A stretch of DNA of 64,000 nucleotides from an archaeon GW2011_AR5 (GCA_000806115.1 JWKQ01000001.1:217784-281783), one strand, 5' to 3'. Positions 9,910 through 41,605 are shown, numbered from the stretch's first letter. Notes: generated by a model not told the origin, from the letters alone. Made by a program: numbers and translations.

Positions 9910-12900
9910 ATGGAATCGGGGAAATTTGTAGGCTTAGTTATATTGGCCGCCTTGATTATGGTTAGCGTTCCGCTACCTACTATTGGAGCTGGTGTGGTCA
10001 ATGCCGTCGATTTCCCAAGGGCCTTTGGCAGCCCCCCCGCAGACGGGGGCACATGCCTGTCTCGCGATTTCGAGAACAGGTGCATACTCAAAGGCGGCAG
10101 ATATGGCGTTGGCAGATGCGTAGGAGCATTTTCATATTCCTGGCACGTTGAACAGACATTGTATCTTACTGACATACCCACCCAGACTTCCCTAAGCGCC
10201 TGCTATGACTATTGCAAAAACAATTATGCGCAGACCTGCAGGGAACCTTACATAGATTCTTCTTCCACTGTGGCTGACGGAACGAACGTTCCTGTGGGAC
10301 AGACGGTCACTGTTACTTATTCCAGGAACCCCAACCTGCAGAACAGTGTCATAGGACAGCCCCTCAAAATAACGTTTAAACTGAGTAACGAGCCTACATC
10401 GTATGTTGATTCGTGCCAGTCGGCATCATGCCAGAAACCATTCATTGTCGGCAACAACCTCGGGCTCGATGTGAAGGCCGGAGATACTTTGCATTACTGG
10501 ATAGACATGAGCCTTACAGACGGCACATACATAAGGTCGCCGGCTTCTGGAGTGCATTCTTTCACTTTTGCATCAGGCGCAACGCCGCCAACGAACCCGC
10601 CTGCGCAGGGCAAACAGCGGCTCGCAGTGACTAAAACAGGCACAGGCACTGTAACCAGCAACCCACCCGGCATAAATTGCGGCAATACATGTACATTTGA
10701 TTTCAACACAGGCACCCCGGTAACGCTTACGGCGAACCCCGACACAGGCCAGACATTTTCCGGCTGGAGCGGCGGCTGCACCGGCACAGGAATATGCCAG
10801 GTGATTATGAACGGACAAAAAAATGTTGCTGCCGCATTCAGCAGCACCACCCCGCCCGGCACGACGGGCACAATAACAATGGAGGTTCTTGGACAGACAG
10901 TTGTCGGCGGCTCTGTGATGCTCAGGTTCAGGGACTTGCCTGCCAATGCCGATCCCGGAAGATCGCAGCTTGAGATTCGTGATCCAGGCGGGTTAAGAGT
11001 TTACAACAGTTTCCTGACTTCGACATTGACTCAGGGCGAATTTGACGCAAGGATAGCTTTTACGCCGAGAACCCAGGGCGAACATTCTGTTATCCTGGTT
11101 GTAAACAACAACGCAGGGCAAAGGCTGGGAGAACTGCGCGACCAGAAATTCACAGTTGCAGCTGCAGGCACGACACCAGCCGGCCAGTGCAATAGCGCAT
11201 GCATAGGCGACGGATTCGGTTCCGGCAGGTGCGAGAACACGCCGCTGTCAAATCCCCAAGCGACTTCGTCGGCAGGAGGATACGGCTGTCCATCAACCCA
11301 GTATTGCAATTGTTATTCAACTAGTGCTCCGCCCGGCACGCCTGGCGCAGGATGCTGCGCGGTGAAAGAAGTCAATACTTACAATTCAGAAAATAGCATA
11401 CGCACAAGGGATGAATGCTCGCGCCAAGGCGGAGTATGGGGCAGCACCTGCGACCAGGCACATAACAGTGCGTGCAACCAATTCTGCTCGGGCAACGGCT
11501 ACGGCACCGCCGGCACTTGCAATCCCGCCGGCACGTCATCGTTCACCAACATCTGCCTAAACCCAACCACACCGTGCGTATGTACAGGCACCGGACAGCT
11601 TCGTAATACAAACATCCCGTGCAGGCAGGCGTGCAGCACTGATACAAGGGTATCGAGTGGCTATGGATACGGCGGCTATGGATATCCCGGCTACAGCTCT
11701 CCAGTGGTGCAGTCACAAGCTGCGCAGATTCCGTTCGGGCAGTGCACTAACAACCCCGAAGCTCTGCGCTTCGCATGGATGGCAAGCACACAAACAACCG
11801 GTACATCCGGACAGTATGTGCGCGAGCCGTTCCCGCTGTCACAGATTCCGGGACAATACCAATGCGGTGACGACGAGTTCTGCGTCTGTACTTTTCTCAG
11901 CCTGAGCTCTTTCAGCGCGACTAATCCTTCTCCCGTGAGAAACACGCCGGGGAGCATACAATGGGATGCACCCGATGCCATACCCAACCCGCCGGTAAAG
12001 CAGCCGAACCAGCGCGACTGCACAGTGGCGGCGAACGCGACAATCACGGCGATGTTCGCAGGCAACCAGACGGTGGGCGCCGGCGCAGCTTCACCTACGC
12101 GACTGATTCAGGCAGGCGACTCGGTTACCATAACAGGCAACGTGGGCAAATTGTCGGATAGTTGCGAAGGCTACACGTACACATGCAGGAAAGAAAAGAT
12201 AATCCCTTGCGATACGCACAACCGCGTTTTGTGGACGTCATTAAGCGCCGAAGACTGCCCGGCGGGAACAACACTGGTGAATGACCCGCAGGAAGGCAGG
12301 ACAGCGAATTGGCGCACTATCGTAGGAATCGCGCTTATAGCTGCGAGCTTTACCCCGTGCGACGGGGCGTGCATGAGTGCAGGAATATCAAGTATAATAG
12401 ACGGCGCGGTGGCAGGATTGAATTGCGACAGCGGACGGACACCGCAGAGCAACGCGCTTTTATATTACTCGATGCTGCAGCAGGTTCAGGAAAGGAGCAG
12501 TCAAAATAATCCCAATAATCAGGGAGGCGGGGCTAATTTGAACTTCTGTTGCAGCCAGAATGACAATGCCTTCTGCGAGGACAACAGCAAGAGAGGCACG
12601 GGATACTGCATAGGTTCGTCGGTAAGCTGCCCGAACAGATATACAAAAAGGACTTGCCCCGGCACGAACACTAATGCAAATCAAAACGCGAACACCGGCG
12701 GAAACAATAACGCAGACATAGACTGCGTAAACCCAAGCGAGTATTGTTCTTTGGACGGTAATTGCAACGCCGGCAGTCAGGAAGAATGCTGGATAGGCGG
12801 GACGCAGGGAACTTGTTGTAGCTATTCTCCCACCGGCGCTGCCGTCGCCAGCAACGCAGGAACATCAGCAAGTGCGGCAAACAATGCTGCCAAATACAAC

Positions 12901-13254
12901 CCATATGCCATTGCCGCCACTGTGGCGCTCAGCCAGATACCCATTTGTCCTTCAGCGGAAGACCAGCAGGAATGCTTCTCTGTATGCGGCAGCACCTACA
13001 CGACGAACGTTTCGGCTGCGCCTGTCTGCCAGGGTCCCGTAATCGGATACCAGGATGCAAGGTACAAATGCCTGCCCGGAACATGCGGAGGCTATGATAA
13101 CAAACAGGTGAAGATTCTGGTTAAGGGGCCCGATGGAAGCACAGCCATAGATGACACAACCACAACGGACAGCAACGGCGACTTCAGTTACACGTTTATT
13201 GCGCCGGGCGCCGACGGCGAGTTCACCATCATTGCAAGCGTGCCAAGAAGTTAA
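9910..13254 (+). CDS. giant secreted cysteine-rich surface protein (1114 aa)
   Basis: Features: N-terminal anchor/signal FVGLVILAALIMVSVPLPTIGAG; a segment at about 10621-10842 (TGTGTVTSNPPGINCGNTCTFDF..VTLTANPDTGQTFSGWSGGCTG..ICQV) resembling divergent InlB B-repeat domains; many Cys-rich blocks; and a C-terminal Ig/CarboxypepD_reg-like KILVKGPDGST...DSNGDFSYTF. Confidence 0.85.
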   Translation: MESGKFVGLVILAALIMVSVPLPTIGAGVVNAVDFPRAFGSPPADGGTCLSRDFENRCILKGGRYGVGRCVGAFSYSWHVEQTLYLTDIPTQTSLSACYDYCKNNYAQTCREPYIDSSSTVADGTNVPVGQTVTVTYSRNPNLQNSVIGQPLKITFKLSNEPTSYVDSCQSASCQKPFIVGNNLGLDVKAGDTLHYWIDMSLTDGTYIRSPASGVHSFTFASGATPPTNPPAQGKQRLAVTKTGTGTVTSNPPGINCGNTCTFDFNTGTPVTLTANPDTGQTFSGWSGGCTGTGICQVIMNGQKNVAAAFSSTTPPGTTGTITMEVLGQTVVGGSVMLRFRDLPANADPGRSQLEIRDPGGLRVYNSFLTSTLTQGEFDARIAFTPRTQGEHSVILVVNNNAGQRLGELRDQKFTVAAAGTTPAGQCNSACIGDGFGSGRCENTPLSNPQATSSAGGYGCPSTQYCNCYSTSAPPGTPGAGCCAVKEVNTYNSENSIRTRDECSRQGGVWGSTCDQAHNSACNQFCSGNGYGTAGTCNPAGTSSFTNICLNPTTPCVCTGTGQLRNTNIPCRQACSTDTRVSSGYGYGGYGYPGYSSPVVQSQAAQIPFGQCTNNPEALRFAWMASTQTTGTSGQYVREPFPLSQIPGQYQCGDDEFCVCTFLSLSSFSATNPSPVRNTPGSIQWDAPDAIPNPPVKQPNQRDCTVAANATITAMFAGNQTVGAGAASPTRLIQAGDSVTITGNVGKLSDSCEGYTYTCRKEKIIPCDTHNRVLWTSLSAEDCPAGTTLVNDPQEGRTANWRTIVGIALIAASFTPCDGACMSAGISSIIDGAVAGLNCDSGRTPQSNALLYYSMLQQVQERSSQNNPNNQGGGANLNFCCSQNDNAFCEDNSKRGTGYCIGSSVSCPNRYTKRTCPGTNTNANQNANTGGNNNADIDCVNPSEYCSLDGNCNAGSQEECWIGGTQGTCCSYSPTGAAVASNAGTSASAANNAAKYNPYAIAATVALSQIPICPSAEDQQECFSVCGSTYTTNVSAAPVCQGPVIGYQDARYKCLPGTCGGYDNKQVKILVKGPDGSTAIDDTTTTDSNGDFSYTFIAPGADGEFTIIASVPRS

Positions 13255-13297
13255 CTGAGATATACACAAACACTTTGTTAGCGTAAAGGAGCCAAAA

Positions 13298-16200
13298 ATG
13301 AGAAAAAAATTCTCACCGAACGCCAAAATGGGAATGGCATCACTTGTACTTCTGGCAATCCTTTTCTCAGCCGTTATTCTTTCACAGCCGTCTTCGGCGT
13401 CGCTCACCTTTCAGGGAAGGGCGTGCAACCAGAACAGCATCTGCGACGTGATACGCAACTGCGACTCTAACGGATGCACAAGCCGCTATGAGAACTGCCA
13501 GGCTTGCGGCACAACCAGCAAGGTGTGTCCCAACGGGGTGGCTACCGCACCCAATTCTTGTGTCGACTCGGGAACGCCGCGTTGCGTCCCCGGCGTGCCT
13601 GTTTGCGGCGCCAGCCAGGGAAGCACCGATCCCCATGTCATTCTCACTTTCACTGTTTTCACCAAGAAGAACCTGATTATGAACGTTTCTCCTGAAAGTC
13701 AAACCGCGCTCGCAGGCAAAACCCTGAACTACAAAATCAGCGCAGAAAACAAGAACCCCAAACAGCTGAGCTTCCAGATTAGTCACCAGATACCGGTGAA
13801 CTGGCAGATAAACATACCGGCCACCGTGTCAATTGCGGCAAACGGAAAAACAGAAATACCTTTCCGGGTAACATCCAATGATTCCGCTTCAGACGCGAGC
13901 TACCCGATAGTTGTAGGCTTGTTCAACTCGGAGCTCAACCTTTTCGGCACGGCAACCGCGCAGTACATCGTCGCATCGCGCGGCTCGCCGACAATTTCCG
14001 CCAGCCCAAGGAGACAGAGAGGATACCCTGGACAACAGGTTCTCTATAATGTTTCTATAACAAACAACGATCCGACTGATTTCGACCCGTCAACAATAAG
14101 CCTGCGCACAAACGCGCCCGCAGGATTCAACGCAGTGTTCACGCCGAACAGCGTGAACCTGCAGCCCGGTGAAACTCGCTATGTGCGCCTTGATGTCACA
14201 TCTCCAAACAACGCGACAGAGGCTCTATACGGGCTCACAATCAACGCCACCGCCAACAGGCTTACCGCAGTGGAGTTCATAGAATACGAGATAGACTTCT
14301 GCGGCGACGGCGTATGCCAGCAGGGCGAGGAAGCAGGTGCTGACGCCTCCGGCGTATCTCGTTTTTGCAGCACGGACTGCCCGGCTGACAGCAATTTCAT
14401 TTGCAACGGACGCTGCGAGAGGGAGGTGGACGACGGGCTTGAATTTTCGGCAACCGTCACCGTACCTTACACGAAGTTCATCGTATGCAGCAGGAACTCT
14501 TCCCTGCAAACCTGCGTTGCGTCCGCCGGAAGGGCGTCGACAAGCCCTTTTCCCGGCATAAATAATACTAACACCTCGGCGAATTGCGGCATAGGCAAGC
14601 CGTGCCTGTGCACGTCGCAGCAACCGGCATGCAAGACGCTCTGCGTCGACAACCGCGGAGTATACTATCTTGCCGCTAGCACAGGGAACAGTTCCTTGCG
14701 GGGCATAGTGAACTGGAGCTACGCATGTCCATGGGTTGATTTGCCCGAGATAAAGGCACTGAGAGAAAGCTTTTCAAATGCAAGGAATGAATACGAGAAG
14801 GCGCAGAGCGCGCTGAGGGAATCTCTGAACGCGCCGAACATGACAGTGCAGCGGAAGGCTGAAATCCGCCCGTGCATTGATGCGCTGTCGACAATAATAT
14901 CCGACACGACAAACTACGTTTCTTACCTTGACGCTGTCATAGCGTGGCCCGGCATCACCAACACAACCGCCGCGCGGCTCCGCGCATCTTCGCTGCGCGC
15001 AACCATAGAATCAACCTATAATGCTTACTGCCGCGGCGCCTCGGGCCTGCTGCAGATTGACAGCATAGTCGCGCCGCAGCTTGAAAAAGGCGAAATCGGA
15101 CAGGTAGTTGTGTCCGTGAGCAACGTCGGCAACACGCCTTACTACGGCTATGTCCAGTGTGACTTCACAGGCGCCGCGGGCGAACGGACATCAGGCAACG
15201 GCACATGCATCGCCATCGCCGGGAGCACGGGATTCGGCTTCGACGTCAATGCCAGCTCGGCAGGCAGGTGGAACGCCCGCTGCCGCACATACGGCTCACT
15301 TTTGACCAACTGCACGCTTGCGGCAATTCACAGCGAAGCGTCATCTCAATTCAACGTTTCAACGCGCGAAACCTTCGTGGTTGACGTCTCAGGCACCTGC
15401 ACAAACACCACTCTAACCTGCAACGTGCGAGGGTCCCAGGCGAATTGTGCGGGATGTGCAGCGCTTGACATCGGAGAGTGTACTTTGACATCTGCCGGGA
15501 ACGGCACAAATTCCACCAGCAGATTTGACTGTCCAAGAGCCGCATACGGCAACCATACTCTGGTAGGCTATGTCCTCGACAACGCAAGGTGCAAGCCCGT
15601 TGCACCGGAACAGAAGAACGTTACTGTGAGATGCACCGGATGCGGCGACGGAATTGTCGATACAAACGAACAATGCGAACTGCCCTACACAAACAACAAC
15701 CAGCGATGCAGCCAGGCTCAGAGCACCTGCCAGGGGCGGCTGTTCGGCATCCGCGATTCAGCCGGATTCTGCAACACCGACTGTTCATGCAGCCCGGACC
15801 AGTATGAATTCTCATGCACACGCGGGCAGTGCGGAGCCGAGTGTGCCGATGGGAACACAAGAACCGTAACCATAAACAAGACTGGCGGAAGCTGCGTATG
15901 CACCCAGCAGTGCTCGCCTTCGTGCGGATGGAACGCCTGCGACTGCGAACCGGGCGGCGGTGGAGGAGGAGGCGGAGGTGGAATATTCACGACACCGCCA
16001 TCTGTCCTGATAAGTCATGCTCCGCAGTCACCGACGTCAACAGGGACAGTTATGCTTACGGCAACAGCAGTCAACGCCACTGAAGTGGAGATATATGTTG
16101 ACGGCTTCATCGTCAGGAGCTGCCAGTCATCAACCTGCGCGCTTACAGCATCGTACACTCCGGGTGTACACAGTTATTTCGCGCGCGCAGTGAACACGGT

Positions 16201-18268
16201 TGGCACGGACACAGACCCCGACCAGGGAACGAAGTCATTTACTATTCCTGCATCAGGCGGAGGAGGAAGCACGAATCAAACCGGCAACCAGACTGTCAAC
16301 GCAAGCGGTATATCTCTTGGAATATCACACTCGCCGCAGAGCCCGACAACAGCAGATACAGTAGCAATAACAGCCACAGCAAGCTCGAACGCCAACAGGA
16401 TAGAAGTTTATGCCGACGGGCTGTTGTCGACGGTATGCAGCAGCTCCCCGTGCATTTTCGAAAGCACATACACAACAGGCACTCACACATACTTTGCAGT
16501 CGCTTATAATTCTGCCGGCAATTCGGTATCAAACCCTGCAAGCGGAACAAGGTCTTTCACTGTGAGGGCTATCAGCACGCCGAACCAGACAACCCCGCCA
16601 GGCCAAACACCGCCGAACCAGACAACTCCACCCAACCAGACAACCACTACAAACAACAGCATATCACTAACGGTTTCGCACAACCCCCAGAGCCCGACCA
16701 CTGCGAACACCGTCACGATAACCGGCGCCGCAAGCGTCAATGCAAACCGCGTAGACATATATGTTGACGGGTTCCTGGCAAGGAGCTGCACCGAGTTCGT
16801 ATGTTCTTACGCATCGTCCTATGCCGCAGGCAGCCACACTTATTTTGCGCTGGCGTCCGACTCTGCCGGCAACTTCGTCACAAATCCTCTAACAGGCACA
16901 AGAAGCTTCACTGTAACACAAACGAACGTTGCCAACGGCACGGGCGGCACCAACGGCACTGGCGGCCTTGGAACTACCAATATTATACTGGATATCAGCC
17001 ATAACCCTCTTGAAATAACCACGAGAGACGCGGTTACGTTAACGGCTGTCGCGCACGGACCGCGCAGCTTCAGGGAGGTCAATATATTTGTCGACGGCAG
17101 CCTCAGGAAAACCTGCACCAACTCGCCGTCGTCACAACCTTGCACTTTCCGCTCCACGTTCCCGGAAGGAAGCCATGAATACTTCGCAACGGCCGTTGAC
17201 GTGACGAACAGCTCGGCTCGCGACCCGGCGTCTGGCTCGGAAGGCTTCACGGTGTCTGCGCCGGCGCCCATTGAGGAGCCGCCGCCTCCGGGCGGGCCCC
17301 CGATAGGAAGCGGGCCTCCGCCGTCGACAGGCGGATCGTCGCAGGGAGCGTGCTTCGCAAAAATCACCGACAGGAACTGCACGTACAACACCGCCACGAG
17401 GCGCTATGACTTGCGGATAGCGGCGATGTGGGACAACGGAACTCACGCGCACTGGGAGATTGACAACGGCGGCGAGAGCAAGATGATTTACACGAAGAAC
17501 TTCACCCACACGGAGCCGCTGTCTGCGCCCGGCATGAAGTCTGTCGAACTGCTAGTGCACAATGTCAACAACTCGCTGCTATGCAAGGACAGTACTGAAG
17601 TATATTGCGGGCCCGGCTCGGCAACAGGAAAGGACATTGACATGATAATAGACGTCAAGGACGTCGTGAAAACCGGACTCATAGACGTGCGCGTCATCGT
17701 TGCGCCTTACATCAACATCAACGGGCTACGCCTCCTCAGCTACGTGGAGAGCCCGCTGAACGTCACCAACGTACGCATGGAAGGCAACACGAGCCTGTCG
17801 AGCATCAGCGTGCCGGCACGCGTGGCCGAGGACAAGTCGTACACTGTCCACACCGCAAGCACGAACCTGCTTGCCGGGAAGAACGTCTCGCTGCTGTACA
17901 AGGTGCGCATAGACAACCCCGGCGAATACAAGCTCATGGCTGTCGCCAACTATTCGGGCACAAGCCAGAGAGTTACAAAGACCCTCAAGGCGACGAACTG
18001 CCCGCAGGCGTTCCCTGTGCTCGCGGTGTCGCCGAGCGGACTGTGCTTCGAATATGCCACGCCATGCGACAAGCCCGAGGGATGGACAATAGTGGAGAAG
18101 TGCCCGGACGCCACGCAGCCGGAGGAATCCAACCCATGGCCGCTTGTCATACTCATAATAATAGTCGTTGTCGCGGCGCTCCTGATATTCAAGAACAGGG
18201 AAAGGCTGAGGGGCATTTCTTTGAGAAGAAAGCCGAAAGAGGAGCTGCCGCGGTTCGAGGAAGAATAA
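13298..18268 (+). CDS. giant membrane-anchored surface protein (1656 aa) with CARDB/NEW3-like domains, Cys-rich CGDG repeats and four Ig-like repeats
   Basis: Features: signal peptide MGMASLVLLAILFSAVILSQPSSA; CGDGVCQQGEE and CGDGIVDTNEQCE motifs; a G9 run; four repeats of about 95 aa; and a C-terminal TM WPLVILIIIVVVAALLIF followed by KNRERLR. Confidence 0.9.
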   Translation: MRKKFSPNAKMGMASLVLLAILFSAVILSQPSSASLTFQGRACNQNSICDVIRNCDSNGCTSRYENCQACGTTSKVCPNGVATAPNSCVDSGTPRCVPGVPVCGASQGSTDPHVILTFTVFTKKNLIMNVSPESQTALAGKTLNYKISAENKNPKQLSFQISHQIPVNWQINIPATVSIAANGKTEIPFRVTSNDSASDASYPIVVGLFNSELNLFGTATAQYIVASRGSPTISASPRRQRGYPGQQVLYNVSITNNDPTDFDPSTISLRTNAPAGFNAVFTPNSVNLQPGETRYVRLDVTSPNNATEALYGLTINATANRLTAVEFIEYEIDFCGDGVCQQGEEAGADASGVSRFCSTDCPADSNFICNGRCEREVDDGLEFSATVTVPYTKFIVCSRNSSLQTCVASAGRASTSPFPGINNTNTSANCGIGKPCLCTSQQPACKTLCVDNRGVYYLAASTGNSSLRGIVNWSYACPWVDLPEIKALRESFSNARNEYEKAQSALRESLNAPNMTVQRKAEIRPCIDALSTIISDTTNYVSYLDAVIAWPGITNTTAARLRASSLRATIESTYNAYCRGASGLLQIDSIVAPQLEKGEIGQVVVSVSNVGNTPYYGYVQCDFTGAAGERTSGNGTCIAIAGSTGFGFDVNASSAGRWNARCRTYGSLLTNCTLAAIHSEASSQFNVSTRETFVVDVSGTCTNTTLTCNVRGSQANCAGCAALDIGECTLTSAGNGTNSTSRFDCPRAAYGNHTLVGYVLDNARCKPVAPEQKNVTVRCTGCGDGIVDTNEQCELPYTNNNQRCSQAQSTCQGRLFGIRDSAGFCNTDCSCSPDQYEFSCTRGQCGAECADGNTRTVTINKTGGSCVCTQQCSPSCGWNACDCEPGGGGGGGGGGIFTTPPSVLISHAPQSPTSTGTVMLTATAVNATEVEIYVDGFIVRSCQSSTCALTASYTPGVHSYFARAVNTVGTDTDPDQGTKSFTIPASGGGGSTNQTGNQTVNASGISLGISHSPQSPTTADTVAITATASSNANRIEVYADGLLSTVCSSSPCIFESTYTTGTHTYFAVAYNSAGNSVSNPASGTRSFTVRAISTPNQTTPPGQTPPNQTTPPNQTTTTNNSISLTVSHNPQSPTTANTVTITGAASVNANRVDIYVDGFLARSCTEFVCSYASSYAAGSHTYFALASDSAGNFVTNPLTGTRSFTVTQTNVANGTGGTNGTGGLGTTNIILDISHNPLEITTRDAVTLTAVAHGPRSFREVNIFVDGSLRKTCTNSPSSQPCTFRSTFPEGSHEYFATAVDVTNSSARDPASGSEGFTVSAPAPIEEPPPPGGPPIGSGPPPSTGGSSQGACFAKITDRNCTYNTATRRYDLRIAAMWDNGTHAHWEIDNGGESKMIYTKNFTHTEPLSAPGMKSVELLVHNVNNSLLCKDSTEVYCGPGSATGKDIDMIIDVKDVVKTGLIDVRVIVAPYININGLRLLSYVESPLNVTNVRMEGNTSLSSISVPARVAEDKSYTVHTASTNLLAGKNVSLLYKVRIDNPGEYKLMAVANYSGTSQRVTKTLKATNCPQAFPVLAVSPSGLCFEYATPCDKPEGWTIVEKCPDATQPEESNPWPLVILIIIVVVAALLIFKNRERLRGISLRRKPKEELPRFEEE
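15985..17255 (+). repeat. four tandem in-frame repeats of about 95-100 codons (Ig-like) separated by N/T/P-rich linkers
   Basis: The repeated peptide pattern is ISH.PQSPT....V.ITA.A......V.IYVDG.....C....C......Y..G.H.YFA.A....G......P..G..SFTV, seen four times. Linkers include TPNQTTPPGQTPPNQTTPPNQTTTTNN. Confidence 0.75.
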
Positions 18269-18275
18269 TACCGAT

Positions 18276-18296
18276 CTTTTTCTTTGGAAGAAAAAG
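18276..18296 (+). terminator. conserved T-rich hairpin 8 nt after the stop codon
   Basis: CTTTTTCTT 18276-18284 pairs with AAGAAAAAG 18288-18296 around the loop TGG. Almost the same sequence occurs at 59407 and 29388(-). Confidence 0.45.
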
Positions 18297-18330
18297 CTAG
18301 GTGTCCCAAAAAGAACTATAAGGTGATAAA

Positions 18331-18753: not shown

Positions 18754-18825
18754 GGGTATTTAAAGTAGTTACTTATAAATAGTGAAAATTGGAATCTTTA
18801 AATACACCGCAAGAAGAATACGATA

Positions 18826-19686
18826 ATGATAATCAGCCGGCGGGATTTCTTGACAGGCGCGGCGTGCGCAGCCGCTGTTGGGATAGCGTCAGACGGGCCT
18901 GCTTTCACATACGACAGCGCAAGCTGGGAGAATGTCCGGGAAGGGCTTGAATTCTCAAGAATACGCGTTTATGAAAGGGGAAAACCCATCGACACGCTGG
19001 CAGTACTCAGGGCAGACCCTGAAAGGAACAAATTCGATTTGTATCATGACAGGAACGGAAGAAAAACGGCAGAAGACTGGAGAAGGCATGTAGGCGCCGA
19101 TGCAGTTTTCAATGCGGGATTCTACAGGTATGTAAGAGGATACGGACTGTCCACAGAACCTGCTGCCCTTTCCATAAGCGAGGGAAGCATTCTTGGGCCC
19201 AGAAACAACAGAAGCGTAAAGGGCGCATTCGTTGCCGAACCAATGAGCGGAAGAAGACCGTACGCAAGGCTCATAGACATGGATCATGAAAAGGGGTATA
19301 ACCAATACAACTGGAACACTGCGGTTAATTCATGGCCCATGTTAGTTCATGCAAACGGAACTCTTGGAGGCTCCGGCTCCAAAAGCGACAGCCGGACAGC
19401 CGTTTGCGAGGACGGGCATGGAAGGATACTGGCGGTCACCACCGAGGACAATAACCTGACGCTTCCCGGCTTTGCCCGTGCACTGCGCGACAGCGGACTT
19501 GACGTGAAAAAAGCACTGAATCTGGACGGCGGGCATGCGGCACAAATGTATATCGAGCGCGGCGGGATAAGATATGCGACATACGGAAAGGAACAAAAAA
19601 TGCTTGGCATACAGTTCTTGGACAGGCTCGTGGAAAGCGTGAAAGTCCCAATACCCGGCGTCATAGGCATTTCGGAGAGGCGATAA
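18826..19686 (+). CDS. phosphodiester glycosidase (NAGPA/DUF2233) family protein with a twin-arginine signal
   Basis: The Tat motif is MIISRRDFLTGAACAAAVG. The C-terminal SRTAVCEDGHGRILAVTTED...LNLDGGHAAQMY is typical of the family. Confidence 0.7.
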   Translation: MIISRRDFLTGAACAAAVGIASDGPAFTYDSASWENVREGLEFSRIRVYERGKPIDTLAVLRADPERNKFDLYHDRNGRKTAEDWRRHVGADAVFNAGFYRYVRGYGLSTEPAALSISEGSILGPRNNRSVKGAFVAEPMSGRRPYARLIDMDHEKGYNQYNWNTAVNSWPMLVHANGTLGGSGSKSDSRTAVCEDGHGRILAVTTEDNNLTLPGFARALRDSGLDVKKALNLDGGHAAQMYIERGGIRYATYGKEQKMLGIQFLDRLVESVKVPIPGVIGISERR

Positions 19687-19688
19687 AG

Positions 19689-20261
19689 ATGAAGAAATTC
19701 CTCGCAGCTGCCGCTGCTTTGACTTATCTTGCACAGCCGGCACAGAACGATGCAACAGCCAGAACAGCGACTGATAATTTCAAGAGTTCGGCTTCGATAC
19801 TTATTGACAAGAGCGAAAGAAAAGTCATGGTTTACCAGAATGAAGTGCTTGCTTTCTCTTTTCCGGCCGACTTCGGAAAAGACTGCACAGACATGAGGGA
19901 CAAATCGGACGCAATAGACACTTGCACGCCCGAGGGCTCTTATAAAGTCCTTGAAAAACGCGGGATAAATCGGACAAGACGATACAAGGAACTTCTATTG
20001 GATTATCCGACCCAAGACGACCTGTCCGCCGGAGCAAGGGCCGGCGCCGTAGGCTGGCGGGATATTGTGAGGGATCTTTATTACAGGATAAGAAGGGGAC
20101 ATCCTGCTTACGACACGAAGCTTGGCGGACCGTTCGGCATACAGGGCTATGGCGGAACAGGCAAGGACTGGACAGACGGCTATGTCGCCATCAGCAACGA
20201 AGCTATGGACAAGATTTTTCCGATTGTCGTGAAAGGCAGCGCCGTGAACATAGTTAAGTAA
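19689..20261 (+). CDS. secreted L,D-transpeptidase (YkuD)-like protein, apparently lacking the catalytic His and Cys
   Basis: Features: signal-like MKKFLAAAAALTYLAQPAQ; ILIDKSERKVMVYQNEVL...TPEGSYKV; and FGIQGYGG...TDGYVAISNEAMDKIF, which aligns by eye to the GIHG...SxGCIR motif with Q152 and Y165 at the catalytic positions. Confidence 0.55.
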   Translation: MKKFLAAAAALTYLAQPAQNDATARTATDNFKSSASILIDKSERKVMVYQNEVLAFSFPADFGKDCTDMRDKSDAIDTCTPEGSYKVLEKRGINRTRRYKELLLDYPTQDDLSAGARAGAVGWRDIVRDLYYRIRRGHPAYDTKLGGPFGIQGYGGTGKDWTDGYVAISNEAMDKIFPIVVKGSAVNIVK

Positions 20262-23210
20262 TCAGGCATTAGTTCCAAGATGCAGCGCATCGACATCCGC
20301 CGTCACCTGCACCGGATTCTTGCAAAACAAATTTGTGCAATAGAAATTGTAGCTGTTTTTTGTCGCCTGCGCGTATGTCTTTGAGGTTTGTCCGTCTTTG
20401 CGCTTCTTGGCTTCAGGAACTATCGCATAGTCCGGCTCCTTTCCGAACTTCCTCTTCCATGCCTTCTTGATTTCCCTATAAACTGTCGTCTGCTCGAACG
20501 CCTTCGTCTTCTCCTTTCTCAGCTCGTTGCCAACCTGGATGTTCGTCATCTGGATATTTTGCGCGCTCAGGAAATCCCTTACTACGAGCTCGGTATTGCT
20601 TGGCCTGTCGACAGGTTCCGGCGGACACGTATCCTCATAGCTCAGCATGTCGCCGTCGAGCACAAGATTACTGCTCATCAATTCGTTGAGCTGCTTCTGC
20701 AGCGCCGCGTTCCTTGAGGAATATTCTCCGGCAGCGTAGTCGCCCGCTATGTACATGAGAGACGCGTCAGTGAAAGCGCCGTTGGGGGCGTATATGCCTG
20801 CCAATTCCTCCACGTACTTGTTTCCGTAGAGGAGGCAGCCGTTCATAGTGAGCATGCTGTTGTATATGTCTCCCATCCTCCGGGGCGGCACACCTGTCAG
20901 CACCGCAGCCTTGCAAAGCCGTATCTGCATGCATCCCAGCGTCGGGCCTCCCGTGTTCATTCTGAAAAGATCCTGGAACCAATACTGAGTCTTCGCGGCG
21001 GCTTCCTTGACGTTGAACGGGTTCGCCTCGAATTTTGATTCCTGTCCAGTGAAAGACGCAATGAGAGAAACATATTCAGGCTTCTTGTATTTCGCAGTAT
21101 TGACAATTGCGACCGCCCATTCGCGCGCATCCGGTTTTCCGTATTTTTCCTTTATGGATTTCTCAAGCTGCATAATCAAATCCTGGTTCTCTGCCCCCAG
21201 GCTGGCGTACTGATAAGAATATTTATCCGGAATATTTTGCGGTATCCGTATCGTGTTTCCTTCGTACTTTTCGATATTTGAATTTTCAACAAGTGAATTA
21301 ATTTGCGCCGTTAACCACATGTATTCCTCTTTCCTGCTGCCGAAAATCCCGGGCACAACCGAACGCAGCGTGTCACCCTCCTCTATCACCTTTGTTTCAA
21401 ATGAAGGGTTATAGTTCTCAACTACCCTGTACAGCTTCTCCCGGTTTGGCTTCATTAAAAACCTTATCTTGAAGCTGCTGCCGAATCTTGCCAGAAAATT
21501 TTCAAGCGACTCTATTCTTACAGGATCTTCGCTGCTTTTGGGAGGATGAAAAAGATGCGTTATTATGTGCTCTCTGCCGCGCTTTCCGAGGTACATTGCA
21601 GCGTGCGTGAAATCAATGTCAGGTGTGTTGCCAAGTTCGCGGCCTTTTTCCTTGTCAGCCCTGTAATCGCTGCCTGAATAATAGAAACCTATTATGTCGC
21701 CAGGCTCCATTATGTCGTAGTTGGTAAATATTTCACCGTTCCTCCAGTCAAATTTCGTTGCCGTGCCGCCGTGTTCTTCTATATTCTCCGGCATGTCCCA
21801 GGCATTTCCGCCGACGCCCGTAATGAAATGTTTCCCTATGCCGAAAACATATTCATGGACTCTTGTTACATACTGCGCGCAGTTCGCGCCAAGGCAAAGA
21901 GGGTCTTTCCTTATGAAGCCTTTGAAACCCCCCATAACCGAGCTGAGTCTTTCCGGAATTGTGCCTGCAGTTTCATAAACCTCTATATCGGTGCATATTT
22001 TGTAATTGCTGTTGTATGAGCATCCCAACTTCTCGCAGGAACTCTTTGAACAGCCTGAAATGAAGCCAAAGAGCCCTGAGCCGCATGATGAGCAGTCTTC
22101 TGAATTGTCTTTGCATGAGATTGATTTCGGATCCTTCGAACTTATCATGCCTGAAATCGAATTAATCAGCGCGACAAACGCCCTGTTGTAGTCAGATTTC
22201 TGGATAGCCGCCTTTATTTCTTCCTTCCCGATTATCCTGTCAATTTCCCCCGTAACGACACCGCATTTTGACGAATGCCCTATCACAAATTTGTTTTCCT
22301 TCTTTCCATAGAAAATAACCATGTTAAGAGCCGGCGTCCCAAGAGTTCTCATTTCTCTTTCAGTGAATTTTTTTGACACAAGCAATGCGCTGTCAGCACC
22401 GATAGAATTCAAGGTTTCAATAATAATCAGAACATTTTTTCTCTTATAGATATCCGACAGGATTTTTTTAATCTCGGCGTCATTTGTCAGAATATTTGCC
22501 CGGTCTTTCAGGTAGTCCGGCGATTCATCGTCAGGATTTGTTTCCTCCCCCATTATGCAGCATTGATTACCGGCAGCGCCCGGGCAGAGCCCTTTGACAG
22601 GCGTTCCGCTTTTTGACTTGCACAGTGCGGTGTCCATGCAGTAAAATTCCTCCTTTGGCGACCTGCATCTTGTTGTGCTTATCTCGAAAGTTCCTGCCCT
22701 GTGCGTCATGCCAAAAATTCCGCCATTGGACCATACGATGCACTCTCCGGATTCCTTGCAGTCCCCGTCACTTCCTACTCTTATGACAACTTCCGAATCA
22801 CATTCGATAGATGTCACCTCCCGAGTCCTGACTCCGTTATTCTCAACCCAATATCCGCAATCGGTGTTCCCCTCGATCCTGACAGTGAAGTCCGAGGTTT
22901 TTATGACACCCGTAAGCTCCTCACTCCTTGACGGTCCGCAGAACGTGTACTCCCCTTTCAGAATTTTTTCCTTTGTGCCGGTTCCTTCACTGCTCTTCAG
23001 ATAAGGACCCTCCGGCGTGCCGGGCAGCCCGCACATCTGTATCTTATTCGGGCCCGTACACCATCCCCTTATTTTCTCGAGCCCTGAGGGGCATTCAAAG
23101 TTCGCGGCAGACGTGTCAAAGCATGAGTATTTTTGGCACGGCGCCGCCGCATTAATCCCGTAAACGACGGGAAGCATCATGAGGATTAACACAAAATATA
23201 CAATTTTCAT
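20262..23210 (-). CDS. secreted multidomain cell-wall hydrolase-like protein (982 aa): Cys modules, TPM-like, papain-like (NlpC/P60/CHAP-like), LysM-like and lytic-transglycosylase-like regions
   Basis: Features:
- signal peptide MKIVYFVLILMMLPVVYG
- Cys modules CPSGLEKIRGWCTGPNKIQMC and GTPVKGLCPGAAGNQCC
- GANCAQYV (Cys444) paired with FTHAAMYLG (His536)
- IEEGDTLRSV...GNTIRIP, which looks LysM-like
- TGQESKFEANP...GPTLGCMQI, which looks SLT-like
The start overlaps the upstream gene by 4 nt. Confidence 0.85.
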   Translation of the reverse strand: MKIVYFVLILMMLPVVYGINAAAPCQKYSCFDTSAANFECPSGLEKIRGWCTGPNKIQMCGLPGTPEGPYLKSSEGTGTKEKILKGEYTFCGPSRSEELTGVIKTSDFTVRIEGNTDCGYWVENNGVRTREVTSIECDSEVVIRVGSDGDCKESGECIVWSNGGIFGMTHRAGTFEISTTRCRSPKEEFYCMDTALCKSKSGTPVKGLCPGAAGNQCCIMGEETNPDDESPDYLKDRANILTNDAEIKKILSDIYKRKNVLIIIETLNSIGADSALLVSKKFTEREMRTLGTPALNMVIFYGKKENKFVIGHSSKCGVVTGEIDRIIGKEEIKAAIQKSDYNRAFVALINSISGMISSKDPKSISCKDNSEDCSSCGSGLFGFISGCSKSSCEKLGCSYNSNYKICTDIEVYETAGTIPERLSSVMGGFKGFIRKDPLCLGANCAQYVTRVHEYVFGIGKHFITGVGGNAWDMPENIEEHGGTATKFDWRNGEIFTNYDIMEPGDIIGFYYSGSDYRADKEKGRELGNTPDIDFTHAAMYLGKRGREHIITHLFHPPKSSEDPVRIESLENFLARFGSSFKIRFLMKPNREKLYRVVENYNPSFETKVIEEGDTLRSVVPGIFGSRKEEYMWLTAQINSLVENSNIEKYEGNTIRIPQNIPDKYSYQYASLGAENQDLIMQLEKSIKEKYGKPDAREWAVAIVNTAKYKKPEYVSLIASFTGQESKFEANPFNVKEAAAKTQYWFQDLFRMNTGGPTLGCMQIRLCKAAVLTGVPPRRMGDIYNSMLTMNGCLLYGNKYVEELAGIYAPNGAFTDASLMYIAGDYAAGEYSSRNAALQKQLNELMSSNLVLDGDMLSYEDTCPPEPVDRPSNTELVVRDFLSAQNIQMTNIQVGNELRKEKTKAFEQTTVYREIKKAWKRKFGKEPDYAIVPEAKKRKDGQTSKTYAQATKNSYNFYCTNLFCKNPVQVTADVDALHLGTNA

Positions 23211-25732
23211 GCCGTGTCCTCCCCGAAAAGATCGATTCCAACTATGTCAAACCCGACCTCTCCATAGACATTTGCTTCCTGGCTGCACAAAGATGCCGGC
23301 ACGCACGCGCCGCCGGACCACATGCATCCCATCCGCGCGCAGGATTTTTGGCACCCTGACGAGTCGATAATGCTCCCCATGCTTTCAAGAATTCCGGAGC
23401 ATACAGAGCCGCACTGGACGCTGCTGCTCTTCACTGTGACGCGCGTGCCTGCCGCGACGCTGCCGAATACGCCTGAAATATCGTCGCACTCCGTGTCGTG
23501 CATGCCGACGCACTGAAAGCTGCGCTCGTTGTTGTTGATGCCGAGCCAGTAGTTGCCGGCTATATTGCATGACGAAGCCGCACCTTTTGTCGCTTTCTCG
23601 GTTATCTCCAGCCTGCCTTCCGGCAGCACGAAGGAATTGTCCTCATTCACAGTCTGCCGGCTAAGGCACGCCTTCCATCTTTGGTAATTTGCCGTGTACC
23701 TCGGGTTTTCCCTCTGTCCCATTATGTCCTCGACGAAATTCTCATCTTCCCGCAGGGGGTCGTTCAGACATCGCGCCGGCCAGCCGTTGTAGTAGCGAAG
23801 AACAACCTCTTCTATAGTGCCGTATGTTTTGCCCTTGCAGTCGTACACTTTCCTTCCCACGTCTCCTGCCTGCGTCCTTGCAAGGTTAGAGAGGTACTTC
23901 ACCCCGCAGTCTATTGTTGCGTCAACGTCATGTTCGCGTATTTTCTGCTGGTCACACTCCGGATGCACGGGAACGTTGATTTGCATTATGCCCGTGGACG
24001 AGCCGCTCTCTGCATTCTCGTTCCACGCGGACTCCTTGGAGATAAGCGCGGCGACTAATGCCTGAGGACTGTCTGTTAACGTCATACGGTATTTTTCTAT
24101 CTTCGAGTTGATGACGTCCCTGTAGGCGTTATACTTGTCTATGAAAGTTTGCGGTATGCCTTCGCACTGGCTTGATATGCCGGCGCTTGCCGTGGTTTTG
24201 CTAACTGCGGCTTTTATCGGATTGTCGGGCATTCCGTTCCTGCAAAGGTAAACGTCGTTACAATCAAGTTGCACGACGCCTCCGTCGTCATTCGGCGTGT
24301 TGCATTTCTCGCCCTTCTTCATCACTACGACTTCTGTGCGCCGCTCGCCCGGGCAGATGTTCTCGCATGCGCCGCCCTGCGGCGCATTGTTGTTCCACAT
24401 GCATCCGTCAATGCTGACGCATTTCTCCATGCTACAGCCGGGGAATGAGTCGCACTCTGTCCTGCAGTCTTTCACGTCGAACTTCTCGCGGCAGACGTCA
24501 CCAGAGGCAGATTTTTCTGCGATGACAGCTTCCAGCAATCTCACAAGATTGTTGAATGCCTCGTCGTACTGCTTCAGTTCCGCCTTCTTTCCCACGCTAT
24601 CGTCGGATATTATCTTCCTGAGCGTAGCCTCCTCGACGCCGCAATTCTCCGAGCCGCGCAGGATGTGCCACTGATTTCTCGCCTTGCCGTAAAGTATTAT
24701 CATGGTAAGCTTCTTTCCGCTCTGGTGAAGCTTGTACTTGAAATCAAACCTGTTCAGCATGCTCTGTTCCGCATCAGGCGGTATTTCATCAACCATCTCA
24801 ATTATTATTTTCGCGTCATAGTTCTGGCTTATCAGGTTTAGCCGGTTGTCGATTTCCGACAGTGAAAGCGTGCCTGTTGCGTCGTACGCAAAAGAATCGG
24901 ACGCCGCGTAGGTTTGCTGGTATATGCAGCATTCGATATTGCTCGGCGCGCTTGGACAGTAAGTTCTGATAGGCGTGCCGCCGGTGGCTGTGCATTCCGC
25001 CTTGTCAATGCACTGGCTTGTTGTGTATTTTCTGCACGATCCGTACGCGCCGGACGGGCGGTAGAATGTTATGCTGAATGTCCTGCTCTCCCCGCCGTTT
25101 GCAACGGTGCAGACGTTCTCCCCCTCGTCGCGGCAGTCGCCGTTGGGGCCCACCGTTATGGTTACCCACGAGCCGCAAGCCGCGCTGTCACGCTTCGTCT
25201 CGACATCCTTGCTCTTCACGGAGTATGTACATGTGCCCGTGCCGTCAAGGAAGAATCTGAAGTCCTGCACCTGCACGTTGGACGGAAGGCTCGTGACGAT
25301 ACCGGGGCCGTAAACGCGCCTGCCAACCGGCGTCCCGGGAGACGCGCAGCACTGGATATCATTCCCGCCAAGGCACCAGCCTCTCACATACGTAAGCCCG
25401 TCCTGACATGAATGCCTGTTTATGTCGTAGCATTTGTAAGTGCCGAGAGGCGCATCGCAGTATCCAACATAGCCCAGTCCTGGACCGCCCACCCTCGGCC
25501 CTTCGGGAGTGCCTGCAGGCGCGCAGCACTGTATGTTGTTTCCGCCGGGACACCATCCACGCACGTAGGTAAGTCCCTCTCCCGGACAGTAGGGAGTTTC
25601 TGTCTTGTCATAGCAATTGTAGGCTGCAGAAGACGAACTCAGCGGATTATCACAATTCCCATATGTTGTTCCCTGCGCCGCGAAGGCGGGAACTGCAAGC
25701 AGCAATGCAAACGCGATTAATACCAGTTTCAT
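23207..25732 (-). CDS. secreted multidomain protein (841 aa) with three RGWC..CC Cys modules, a TPM-like region and a soluble lytic transglycosylase (SLT/goose-lysozyme-like) domain
   Basis: Features: signal peptide MKLVLIAFALLLAVPAFA; LTYVRGWCPGGNNIQCC, LTYVRGWCLGGNDIQCC and TPIRTYCPSAPSNIECC; and the SLT motif LISKESAWNENAESGSSTGIMQINV, with the Glu567 codon at 24032-24034. Confidence 0.88.
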   Translation of the reverse strand: MKLVLIAFALLLAVPAFAAQGTTYGNCDNPLSSSSAAYNCYDKTETPYCPGEGLTYVRGWCPGGNNIQCCAPAGTPEGPRVGGPGLGYVGYCDAPLGTYKCYDINRHSCQDGLTYVRGWCLGGNDIQCCASPGTPVGRRVYGPGIVTSLPSNVQVQDFRFFLDGTGTCTYSVKSKDVETKRDSAACGSWVTITVGPNGDCRDEGENVCTVANGGESRTFSITFYRPSGAYGSCRKYTTSQCIDKAECTATGGTPIRTYCPSAPSNIECCIYQQTYAASDSFAYDATGTLSLSEIDNRLNLISQNYDAKIIIEMVDEIPPDAEQSMLNRFDFKYKLHQSGKKLTMIILYGKARNQWHILRGSENCGVEEATLRKIISDDSVGKKAELKQYDEAFNNLVRLLEAVIAEKSASGDVCREKFDVKDCRTECDSFPGCSMEKCVSIDGCMWNNNAPQGGACENICPGERRTEVVVMKKGEKCNTPNDDGGVVQLDCNDVYLCRNGMPDNPIKAAVSKTTASAGISSQCEGIPQTFIDKYNAYRDVINSKIEKYRMTLTDSPQALVAALISKESAWNENAESGSSTGIMQINVPVHPECDQQKIREHDVDATIDCGVKYLSNLARTQAGDVGRKVYDCKGKTYGTIEEVVLRYYNGWPARCLNDPLREDENFVEDIMGQRENPRYTANYQRWKACLSRQTVNEDNSFVLPEGRLEITEKATKGAASSCNIAGNYWLGINNNERSFQCVGMHDTECDDISGVFGSVAAGTRVTVKSSSVQCGSVCSGILESMGSIIDSSGCQKSCARMGCMWSGGACVPASLCSQEANVYGEVGFDIVGIDLFGEDTA

Positions 25733-25733
25733 G

Positions 25734-26105
25734 TCAGACGCTCCCCGGCCTTGTGTATATGTACAGCGAGTCAGAGCCTGCGTTCACTGCAGACAAGCTC
25801 TGCCCCGTTTCGCCGTCGGGCACATAGCAGCCGCACGCTTTCGCGCACTGGGCAGTGTCGCCAAAACCGCTCCTGCCGCATACGAAGCCGAAATTTGCCT
25901 CCTCAACGCTGATGCTGTTGACTTCCTTGTGGTCGCAGTCGTGGAAAGCCCGCAAAGATGCGCAGCCTTCGAGGAACAGCTTCTTGTTATTGACGCTGTC
26001 GTCGTTGAAGAATCCGAAGAAGAAGCCTCCTATGGCTGCGAGCACCAGCAGCGCTACGGCGACGAATATTATCACGTTAAGAGGGAGTTCCATACCCTTG
26101 GGCAT
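25734..26105 (-). CDS. small N-terminally anchored cysteine-rich protein (MELPL family), first gene of the minus-strand operon
   Basis: The N-terminus is MPKGMELPLNVIIFVAVALLVLAAIGGFFF. The stop lies 1 nt before the start of the 841 aa gene. A TATA-like TTATATAAC sits about 20-27 nt upstream on the minus strand. An alternative start is the ATG at 26093. Confidence 0.7.
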   Translation of the reverse strand: MPKGMELPLNVIIFVAVALLVLAAIGGFFFGFFNDDSVNNKKLFLEGCASLRAFHDCDHKEVNSISVEEANFGFVCGRSGFGDTAQCAKACGCYVPDGETGQSLSAVNAGSDSLYIYTRPGSV

Positions 26106-27170: not shown

Positions 27171-27187
27171 TTGAGGATGTGATTTAT

Positions 27188-27337: not shown

Positions 27338-27405
27338 CGATTTTATTGAGAGCTCAGTAAGGATTGCAAAGACTCCAGAATGAAAGACATGGAATAACAA
27401 AGAAT

Positions 27406-41604: not shown

Positions 41605-41605
41605 A

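Follow-up and report, generated by a model that had tools for sequence, protein, structure and literature searches.

Large extracellular proteins of the murein-type lytic transglycosylase kind have been described in Woesearchaeota and Pacearchaeota, where they were read as tools against bacterial walls (PMC8204110), and Vigneron et al. (2022) proposed predatory, 'vampiristic' lifestyles for DPANN archaea on the basis of lytic transglycosylases (PMC9723730). Strock et al. (2025) reported modular peptidoglycan hydrolases in about 5% of archaeal genomes, with two haloarchaeal examples that kill a bacterium (PMC12352652). The idea that archaea aim murein hydrolases at bacteria is therefore not new. 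The present work concerns a 64,000-nucleotide (nt) stretch of the tiny groundwater archaeon GW2011_AR5, called here the window, in which the region 9910-26105 holds two convergent operons; one includes the genes of giant surface proteins, the other encodes exported proteins with murein-type catalytic modules. A first interpretation of this DNA, made from its letters alone (hereafter the sequence-only reading), had held that no system of this composition is described, which is too strong in view of the DPANN and other archaeal precedents cited above.

On balance, we favour the view that the locus is a surface cluster of Aenigmatarchaeota in which adhesin-like proteins are combined with exported enzymes that cut bacterial peptidoglycan, and that it serves in contact with a bacterium, be it host, prey or competitor. 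As the archaeon makes no murein, the substrate we infer is the peptidoglycan of bacterial cells. The window resembles the DPANN cases (PMC8204110, PMC9723730) in that large exported SLT proteins are read as binding or degrading the bacterial wall, and its own SLT domain is most similar to archaeal SLT proteins of 1.6-2.0 kaa (thousand amino acids). Unlike them, it belongs to Aenigmatarchaeota, and its catalytic domains (SLT, YkuD, NlpC-like, DUF1615) are interchangeable on a scaffold of some 450 amino acids (aa) made of Cys modules, a beta-sandwich and a TPM domain. It also differs in having two enzymes per operon, prepilin-like and giant adhesin-like neighbours, and avoidance of N-glycosylation sequons.

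The hydrolases of Strock et al. and the proteins of the window have in common secreted murein-cleaving domains, presumably aimed at bacteria, as well as domain shuffling (PMC12352652). That survey required a recognised catalytic domain together with a recognised cell-wall-binding domain, whereas the window proteins have the catalytic part only, so that they would have been missed; SLT, YkuD, DUF1615, NAGPA and Aenigmarchaeota are unmentioned in it. The examples tested there were haloarchaeal M23 peptidases, which are patchy and often plasmid-borne, while the family of the window is chromosomal and lineage-restricted.

Exported multi-domain proteins on a common scaffold

Open reading frame (ORF) calls, motif searches and profile searches against Pfam, NCBIfam and PHROGs were applied to the region, and the eight ORFs were recovered with exactly the limits first read. 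The minus-strand operon encodes a small protein of 123 aa (25734-26105), which is its first gene product, followed by proteins of 841 aa (23207-25732) and 982 aa (20262-23210), both predicted to be exported multi-domain enzymes. Packing is as tight as had been claimed, with a 1-nt gap at 25733 and a 4-nt overlap at 23207-23210, and the stop codons of the two operons abut at 20261/20262. Since no base lies between these convergent stops, there is no space for a terminator, and the two transcripts must either overlap at their 3' ends or continue into the opposing gene. An N-terminal hydrophobic segment or a twin-arginine translocation (Tat) signal was found in all eight proteins, on the basis of Kyte-Doolittle windows and of the Tat model TIGR01409, the latter being the sole contribution of the NCBIfam scan. 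Cys content was 3.3 to 10% in six of the eight. The sequence-only reading had announced an exported locus in an archaeal genome, with enzymes carrying murein-type catalytic modules; signals, profiles and motifs all support this, and each motif that it quoted for the two enzymes was located in place.

The sequence of the 841-aa protein is that of QT00_C0001G0272 from GW2011_AR5, annotated as 'hypothetical protein'. It consists of a signal peptide (residues 1-19), two Cys modules (27-70 and 92-129), a beta-sandwich (~150-225), a third Cys module (241-269), a TPM domain (283-402), a Cys knot (423-460), an SLT domain (~520-690), a YkuD remnant (~700-775) and a last Cys knot (794-810). The SLT (family-1 lytic transglycosylase) domain, encoded at 23663-24175 on the minus strand, matches PF01464 over residues 554-623 (2.3e-6, 27.6 bits for a cutoff of 21.3). 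Its motif set is intact: E-S within ISKESAWNE (564-572, E567-S568), G-x-M-Q within GIMQINV (581-587, GIMQ 581-584), and Y-N-G within YYNGW (647-651), the E, S, A and W being invariant in a five-member alignment (A6). Residues 515-697 also matched the endolysin family phrog_669 (E 1.4e-5), and the nearest relatives of the domain, where named, are called 'transglycosylase SLT domain-containing protein [archaeon]'. The lytic-transglycosylase motif first noticed is thus borne out, and the domain is predicted to be a lytic transglycosylase with intact catalytic motifs. For the isolated C-terminus and the N-terminal Cys modules, Pfam gave no credible family.

The 982-aa protein, 100% identical in four other assemblies, comprises a signal peptide (residues 1-22), a Cys module (24-61), a beta-sandwich (~105-180), a second Cys module (182-218), a TPM domain (235-353), a Cys knot (373-400), a papain-like module (~430-590), a beta-alpha-alpha-beta segment (~600-660) and a DUF1615 domain (~680-945). 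An AlphaFold model of the full length, built from 7 sequences, had a predicted local distance difference test score (pLDDT) of 58, and Foldseek returned only TPM and generic immunoglobulin (Ig)-like or beta-sandwich matches with it. Sequence searches of the PDB with the whole protein, the DUF1615 profile and the papain-like profile gave nothing meaningful.

What had been described as a second SLT-like region does contain the quoted motifs, QESKFEANP (723-731) and GCMQI (759-763), and proved to be the DUF1615 domain (20376-21173, minus strand). PF07759 matched residues 756-934 at 3.1e-27 (96 bits, cutoff 25), and the motifs of the domain read QES, GCMQ and DYAAG. Modelled separately from a 19-sequence alignment, it reached a pLDDT of 85.3 and a predicted template-modelling score (pTM) of 0.82; about two-thirds of the top 50 PDB matches in Foldseek were family-1 lytic transglycosylases (Slt, MltF, MltC, MltE, phi6 lysin), and the best named viral matches were LT_GEWL domain proteins and a tail lysin (probability 0.97-0.98). 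Bacterial members of the DUF1615 family, collected with the domain profile, are 340-450-aa lipoproteins that have the motifs ES, G.MQ and (Y/F)-(N/A)-x-G-x-Y-S-S-R-N-A in common with the C-terminus of the 982-aa protein. In bacteria they stand alone and their function is uncharacterised, whereas in the window the domain follows a papain-like module within one polypeptide, on a secreted scaffold of archaea. Judging from the model, DUF1615 is a probable divergent lytic-transglycosylase-like domain, and such a function may be suggested for the bacterial family too.

The papain-like (NlpC/P60-superfamily-like) module (21441-21923, minus strand) was assigned on invariant Cys and His residues. It holds NCAQYV (443-448) and THAAMYLG (535-542); in an alignment of seven members, Cys444, His536, His548 and His552 do not vary. 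Cys444 lies near the start of a predicted helix (442-455) and the His residues on consecutive predicted strands (536-544 and 547-552), with pLDDT 33-76 there. The papain-like region of the sequence-only reading therefore stands as far as these residues go, but its profile support is sub-threshold only, and neither NlpC/P60 (PF00877) nor CHAP (PF05257) matched the protein. The LysM-like region had to be given up: the segment at ~600-660, a beta-alpha-alpha-beta prediction of low confidence, matched neither LysM (PF01476) nor any other family at E<=1 when isolated, or at E<=0.1 within the whole protein.

Over their first 400-450 residues, the 841-aa and 982-aa proteins are paralogous (28% identity). 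The scaffold that they share is made of one or two Cys modules (C..C..G..GWC.G.N.QCC), a beta-sandwich, a further Cys module, the TPM domain and a Cys knot (C...C...GC.W). The TPM domain of the 982-aa protein (22152-22508, minus strand) scored above the Pfam TPM_phosphatase cutoff (2.8e-5, 24.5 bits for 22.1) and matched 5anp, 2kw7, 2lt2 and 7tbr in Foldseek at probability 1.00, with TM(target) scores of 0.63-0.68; that of the 841-aa protein is just below the cutoff (PF04536, 5.6e-4, 20.3 bits). A canonical TPM-domain protein (9.5e-30), followed by LemA (5.7e-54), is encoded elsewhere in the window (41540-43148, plus strand). As the genome has this ordinary TPM-LemA pair, the TPM domains of the hydrolases are divergent extra copies.

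Among relatives, the scaffold carries SLT alone, canonical YkuD with an NlpC-like module, YkuD with NlpC-like and DUF1615 modules, SLT with a papain-like module, or a papain-like module with DUF1615; catalytic modules are thus shuffled on one scaffold. The family is very rare, chromosomal and lineage-restricted. When 1.84 billion representatives were searched exhaustively with phmmer, 43 proteins were obtained at E<=1e-3, 13 of them at E<=1e-30. Scanning the genomes of 185,579 species for a pattern yielded four loci, all archaeal, of which two were labelled Aenigmatarchaeota.

Both enzymes are devoid of N-X-S/T sequons, for 7.2 expected in the 982-aa protein and 6.4 in the 841-aa protein (expectations are shuffle means). 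About 25 members of the scaffold family (members 30-70% identical; homologues P0002-P0014 and P0026-P0046) likewise had 0 sequons each, or 1 in two or three of them, where 4-16 were expected; the expectation for the family as a whole is well above 100, for a handful (about 1-2) observed. Cytoplasmic proteins and bacterial DUF1615 lipoproteins, used as controls, were at expectation. This near-absolute avoidance argues that the enzymes are exported past an archaeal oligosaccharyltransferase, that they are old in the lineage and that they must stay glycan-free; access to the murein mesh, or disulfide folding, may be the reason. More generally, sequon avoidance marks exported archaeal proteins that must stay glycan-free, and it could be used for mining other archaeal effectors.

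In the mechanism that we propose, the minus-strand operon would supply a prepilin-like small protein and two Sec-exported, disulfide-rich, glycan-free enzymes on a common scaffold. The 841-aa enzyme would bring a lytic transglycosylase, and the 982-aa enzyme a papain-like Cys peptidase or amidase together with a transglycosylase-like DUF1615 domain. The two transglycosylase-type domains, SLT and DUF1615, would cleave the glycan strands, and the Cys/His module the peptide stems. These three modules are defined reagents and candidate antibacterial enzymes. In the literature searched, from which the paper first publishing the AR5 genome was missing, we found no description of the Aenigmatarchaeota cluster or of the TPM/Cys scaffold family, nor of the DUF1615 and dead-YkuD components of this family or its sequon avoidance.

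Surface proteins and the conserved gene order

The plus-strand operon opens with a Cys-rich giant of 1114 aa (9910-13254) and a surface protein of 1656 aa (13298-18268). The former has 60 Cys and an N-terminal hydrophobic signal but no membrane anchor; its sole Pfam match is Flg_new_2 (InlB B-repeat, 2.2e-6), and its sequons are depleted (3 against 14.6 expected). A 36% identical homologue holds the same position in locus L011, and in strain L003 a 1272-aa gene is found where the 1114-aa gene otherwise sits. These features would fit a secreted, adhesin-like protein. The 1656-aa protein combines an N-terminal signal with a C-terminal transmembrane segment (residues 1613-1631), has Ig-like repeats (NPCBM_assoc and Big_7 in Pfam) and low-complexity linkers, and is significantly enriched in sequons (41 against 23.6 expected), so that it is probably N-glycosylated. 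Its homologues occupy the same position in L005, L008, L010 and L011.

A second pair of giants is encoded further on in the window, on the plus strand: a 980-aa protein with an N-terminal PEGA domain (32586-35528), also significantly enriched in sequons (23 against 12.8 expected), and a 1012-aa protein without Pfam match (35830-38868). The pair sits in another stretch of high GC at codon position 2, with a VTT-domain membrane protein and a double winged helix-turn-helix regulator upstream, and the two are candidate S-layer or envelope proteins.

Two small proteins accompany the large ones, and neither had a Pfam match. The Cys-rich 140-aa protein (18331-18753, plus strand) is formed of an N-terminal anchor, MELPLK..., and an ectodomain with 14 Cys; because a stop codon lies three codons upstream, it starts at MELPL without a leader. 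Homologues (56-76% identity) are found directly downstream of the 1656-like gene in L005, L008, L010, L011 and L007, and the differences seen in the L003 and L004 copies of the gene are all synonymous. Synteny thus points to a conserved partner of the giants. In the 123-aa protein, a short charged MPKG leader precedes a hydrophobic segment, and the ectodomain contains Cys. Homologues of this protein, with MPKG or MNKG leaders, are encoded directly upstream of the scaffold enzymes in L005, L008, L006, L009 and L010, and in four of the five the leader is followed by about 22 hydrophobic residues. The 123-aa protein is a candidate for a class III (type IV prepilin-like) signal peptide. Both small proteins had been called 'MELPL-anchored', and each has a hydrophobic N-terminal segment. 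The plus-strand operon would then provide an envelope or adhesin-like set, with the sequon-poor 1114-aa protein, the sequon-rich, anchored 1656-aa protein and its Ig repeats, and a small Cys-rich anchored partner.

Strain comparison separates the giants from the enzymes. L002 is 99.96-100% identical to the window over the enzymes, the NAGPA and YkuD-like genes and the flank. Between L002 16980-22020 and window 13298-18753, nucleotide identity falls to 75-81% for the 1656-aa gene and is 93% for the 140-aa gene, and L002 has a gene for a 94-aa nucleotidyltransferase (NTP_transf_2/Polbeta) inserted between the two. The surface-protein genes thus look like a recombination hot spot, the 1656-aa gene of L002 being a swapped allele in a background that is otherwise identical. 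As the giants vary between strains in which the enzymes are fixed, they behave like recombining contact or antigenic determinants.

The same gene order was found in L005/L008, L006, L007, L009, L010 and L011. It starts with a small protein of 112-131 aa (MPKG or MNKG leader, then a hydrophobic segment) and one or two scaffold enzymes; the convergent side holds variable small wall-enzyme genes, a 140-like protein of 135-151 aa, and the 1656-like and 1114-like giants. From the order kept across loci, small protein, scaffold enzymes, 140-like protein and giants form the core, to which NAGPA and the YkuD-like gene are accessory. That giants and enzymes stay linked across Aenigmatarchaeota fits one functional system, and the conserved chromosomal cluster offers concrete, testable evidence that at least some Aenigmatarchaeota physically interact with bacteria.

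This linkage also bears on a different explanation, in which the scaffold enzymes are freely released, bacteriocin-like peptidoglycan hydrolases that kill competitors at a distance, the giants being ordinary and unrelated envelope proteins. Secreted archaeal peptidoglycan hydrolases do kill bacteria (PMC12352652), the signal peptides of the two enzymes look cleavable and neither enzyme has a membrane anchor, their glycan-free and disulfide-rich build would suit a diffusible protein, and shuffling of catalytic modules among relatives is expected in an arms race. However, unrelated neighbours would not be expected to remain together across divergent lineages as the 140-like, 1656-like and prepilin-like genes do. 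Moreover, the enzymes are invariant and the giants variable between strains, which is the opposite of the usual turnover in an arms race, and the family is lineage-restricted and chromosomal rather than patchy or plasmid-borne. We regard release at a distance as unlikely.

Accessory genes and the proposed target

Between the 140-aa gene and the end of the plus-strand operon lie the genes of a 286-aa protein of the NAGPA family (18826-19686) and of a 190-aa YkuD-fold protein (19689-20261), separated by 2 nt. The 286-aa protein, whose N-terminus reads MIISRRDFLTGAA, had been described as a Tat-signal phosphodiester glycosidase, and both halves of this description agree with models above cutoff: NAGPA (PF09992, 3.8e-17, 63.4 bits for 25) and TIGR01409 (21.1 bits for 16.7), the Pfam TAT_signal model remaining under its cutoff (17.3 for 22.7). 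Comparison of loci suggests that NAGPA is a variable accessory gene. It is absent from this slot in L005, L006, L007 and L010, which have NlpC-like, YkuD-like or Amidase_2 genes there instead. The slot is filled by a 350-390-aa NlpC-like protein with the motif pair G-x-D-C-A ... H-H-V-A-V-F (L005 6777-7952, L007 7171-8253 and L010 7819-8874, all minus strand), by a 245-aa YkuD-like protein, by Amidase_2, of the N-acetylmuramoyl-L-alanine amidase family (L006 13742-14392, minus strand), or, in the window, by NAGPA and the YkuD-like protein. The accessory wall enzymes are therefore interchangeable between loci. In the proposed mechanism, the Tat-exported NAGPA enzyme may strip wall polymers linked through N-acetylglucosamine (GlcNAc)-1-phosphate.

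For the 190-aa protein, assignment to YkuD was confirmed (PF03734, 2.3e-10, 41.7 bits for a cutoff of 23.4), but the catalytic His and Cys are replaced. Catalytic columns were anchored on the canonical domains of relatives (IGIHGS...TLGCVKI) and on PDB 7o21, 6xj6 and 1y7m; a profile of the relatives' YkuD alignment matches these three L,D-transpeptidases or L,D-carboxypeptidases (Bd1075, Pgp2 and YkuD, respectively). The 190-aa protein shares their fold-level family match, and the canonical H-G...G-C is also present in scaffold enzymes of the window's relatives. Unlike them, the 190-aa protein has Gln in the His column (GIQG for GIHG) and Tyr in the Cys column (DGYVA for LGCVK), and its L007 homologue has Gln and Gly in these columns. 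The second YkuD-like segment, at residues ~700-775 of the 841-aa protein (23408-23635, minus strand), is homologous to the intact YkuD that scaffold enzymes of relatives carry in the corresponding place; a truncated remnant, it retains LPEGRLEI and CVGMHD, including the His, but has lost the G-C loop. With Cys and His lost in one protein and truncation in the other, the window encodes no catalytically competent YkuD. The 190-aa pseudo-enzyme may bind stem peptides, and at most such binding would be expected of it and of the remnant.

The side-by-side presence of several complementary bond specificities could also indicate scavenging, with murein debris (necromass) of the groundwater digested for amino sugars and amino acids by an auxotrophic, genome-reduced cell and with surface proteins binding the wall particles. 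DPANN archaea have been proposed as recyclers of cellular polymers (PMC9723730), and NAGPA and the Amidase_2 of relatives would assist the dismantling of wall fragments. Against this, no genes for uptake or catabolism of N-acetylmuramic acid (MurNAc), GlcNAc or muropeptides were found in or beside the cluster, either in the window or in seven related loci. Lytic transglycosylases yield anhydro-muropeptides, which require dedicated catabolism. The heavy outlay on strain-variable, adhesin-like giants also fits recognition of a living partner better. Scavenging appears quite unlikely.

A functional parallel for contact comes from the trans-envelope machines of bacteria, where specialised lytic transglycosylases of the VirB1, EtgA or FlgJ type are encoded beside secretion, pilus or flagellar genes. 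The window similarly has an SLT-type enzyme beside surface-structure genes, including a pilin-like one. By analogy, a sacculus would be opened locally and under control, not lysed in bulk. The bacterial enzymes open the producer's own wall, whereas the producer has no murein here, so that the wall must belong to another cell; in addition, no secretion or pilus motor genes are found in the window cluster. A more specific version of the contact hypothesis may be entertained tentatively, as a possibility rather than an expectation: a dedicated apparatus of Aenigmatarchaeota living on bacteria and not on archaea, in which strain-variable giant adhesins and the pilin-like protein would choose and hold the partner, while the two disulfide-locked enzymes, free of N-glycans so as to penetrate the murein mesh, would cut glycan and peptide bonds locally and open the sacculus for exchange between the cells. 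If this were true, the cluster would be the first molecularly defined wall-breaching machinery of an archaeon on a bacterium, and sequon-free scaffold enzymes would be a genomic marker predicting DPANN lineages with bacterial hosts.

Several points weigh against the idea of wall-cutting enzymes used in contact with bacteria. Enzyme activity and substrate are predicted from sequence, and the functional link between the two operons is suggested by synteny, its only basis. Every DUF1615 match in Foldseek had E>=0.08 and a TM(query) score of about 0.3, for probabilities of up to 0.98, and hhalign aligned DUF1615 with SLT over no more than 24 columns, those near the ES motif, with a probability of 45%. 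In the papain-like module, Peptidase_C92 stayed below threshold (15.5 bits for 27) in three of seven members, with a best E of 0.003, and Foldseek did not retrieve papain-like folds with the low-confidence model of the 982-aa protein. No recognised cell-wall-binding domain (LysM, SH3b, PG_binding) was matched by Pfam, the 190-aa YkuD-fold protein is a predicted pseudo-enzyme without L,D-transpeptidase activity, and we know of no activity of NAGPA on peptidoglycan, so that its listing among peptidoglycan-directed enzymes was not upheld. Chitin-like polymers of GlcNAc can serve as substrates of GH23-type domains as well. Finally, the DPANN hosts known so far are archaea, every cultivated pair being archaeon-on-archaeon. 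In the sequence-only reading of a contact or adhesion plus wall-breaching apparatus, the exported murein-type modules and their conserved linkage to the giants hold, but an active YkuD, LysM and NAGPA as a murein enzyme do not. We infer that murein is the substrate, that the giants would mediate contact and that the purpose would be to breach locally, or to lyse, a bacterial cell that is host, prey or competitor.

Some of these points would also be accounted for if the enzymes remodelled the envelope of the cell itself or of an archaeal host, acting on a GlcNAc-containing glycan or glycoprotein layer in the manner of autolysins, for growth, division or insertion of surface structures. The cluster does contain envelope protein genes, GH23-type folds have the chitin-like alternative just mentioned, papain-like peptidases also include pseudomurein endoisopeptidases, and both the missing murein-specific binding domain in Pfam and the archaeal hosts of known DPANN would agree. 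On the other hand, several independent families associated with murein (SLT, DUF1615, canonical YkuD, NlpC-like, Amidase_2) are found together in the cluster and among its relatives. Pseudomurein contains talosaminuronic acid, a sugar unable to yield the 1,6-anhydro product of lytic transglycosylases, and archaeal wall polymers with these bonds are known only from Methanobacteria and Methanopyri. Envelope remodelling is, in our judgement, very unlikely.

Archaeal origin of the locus and other features of the window

The flanks of the locus are archaeal, as first stated, with genes for ribosomal proteins S8e and L37e, LSM, eRF1 and intron-containing tRNAs; aminoacyl-tRNA synthetases are further archaeal markers within the window. 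Total GC is nevertheless higher across 10-19 kb (0.54-0.57) than in the flanks, and the catalytic domains are of bacterial type. One might therefore suspect an assembly chimera, or a recent bacterial or viral island, which would make the locus uninformative on archaeal biology. However, the same junction to the archaeal S8e/L37e/LSM genes recurs in the 440-kb AR5 contig and in four or more metagenome assemblies made independently; in the latter, identity across the enzyme operon and the right flank is 99.96-100%. The GC excess sits in codon position 2 and thus reflects amino-acid composition (Gly/Ala/Thr/Pro/Cys-rich proteins), while GC at third codon positions (GC3) is 0.54-0.73 in locus genes, inside the housekeeping range of 0.47-0.78, and no tetranucleotide break was found at the locus.

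The nearest homologues of the scaffold enzymes are all archaeal, relatives being labelled Candidatus Aenigm(at)archaeota, a DPANN lineage, and the locus is syntenic in at least seven Aenigmatarchaeota loci. Sequon avoidance, in addition, implies long residence in an N-glycosylating lineage. The comparison of composition and synteny that had been advised as a check for chimerism or horizontal transfer thus argues for a native archaeal locus. Chimerism, contamination and recent bacterial import are rejected because of the shared junctions, the native GC3, the unbroken tetranucleotide profile, the archaeal relatives and the sequon avoidance, and we give an uninformative island or chimera practically no credence. 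A prophage or lysis cassette was also considered. It was ruled out by the conserved chromosomal context and by the absence of phage hallmark genes in the locus, where the PHROGs scan gave the single endolysin match.

Upstream of the enzyme operon, a spacer of about 1.7 kb (26106-27830) is AT-rich (GC ~0.40). Inspection of the spacer for repeats and ORFs gave nothing notable besides mini-ORFs, among them those for a 40-aa zinc-ribbon-like peptide (27048-27170) and a 52-aa transmembrane peptide (27179-27337). Beyond the spacer, a HicB-HicA toxin-antitoxin pair (27830-28260, plus strand) separates the enzyme operon from the ribosomal protein genes. The tRNA genes at 28519-28667 (minus strand) and 52084-52217 (plus strand) are 149 and 134 nt long and evidently contain introns; for a third, at 53940-54027 (plus strand), ARAGORN gives an odd four-base anticodon call (gata), whereas Rfam scores a normal tRNA. 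At the other end of the window, a 642-aa ORF (1879-3807, plus strand) has an unusual architecture, in which an amino-acid permease (residues 37-450) is fused to a C-terminal S-adenosylmethionine (SAM)-methyltransferase (480-597).

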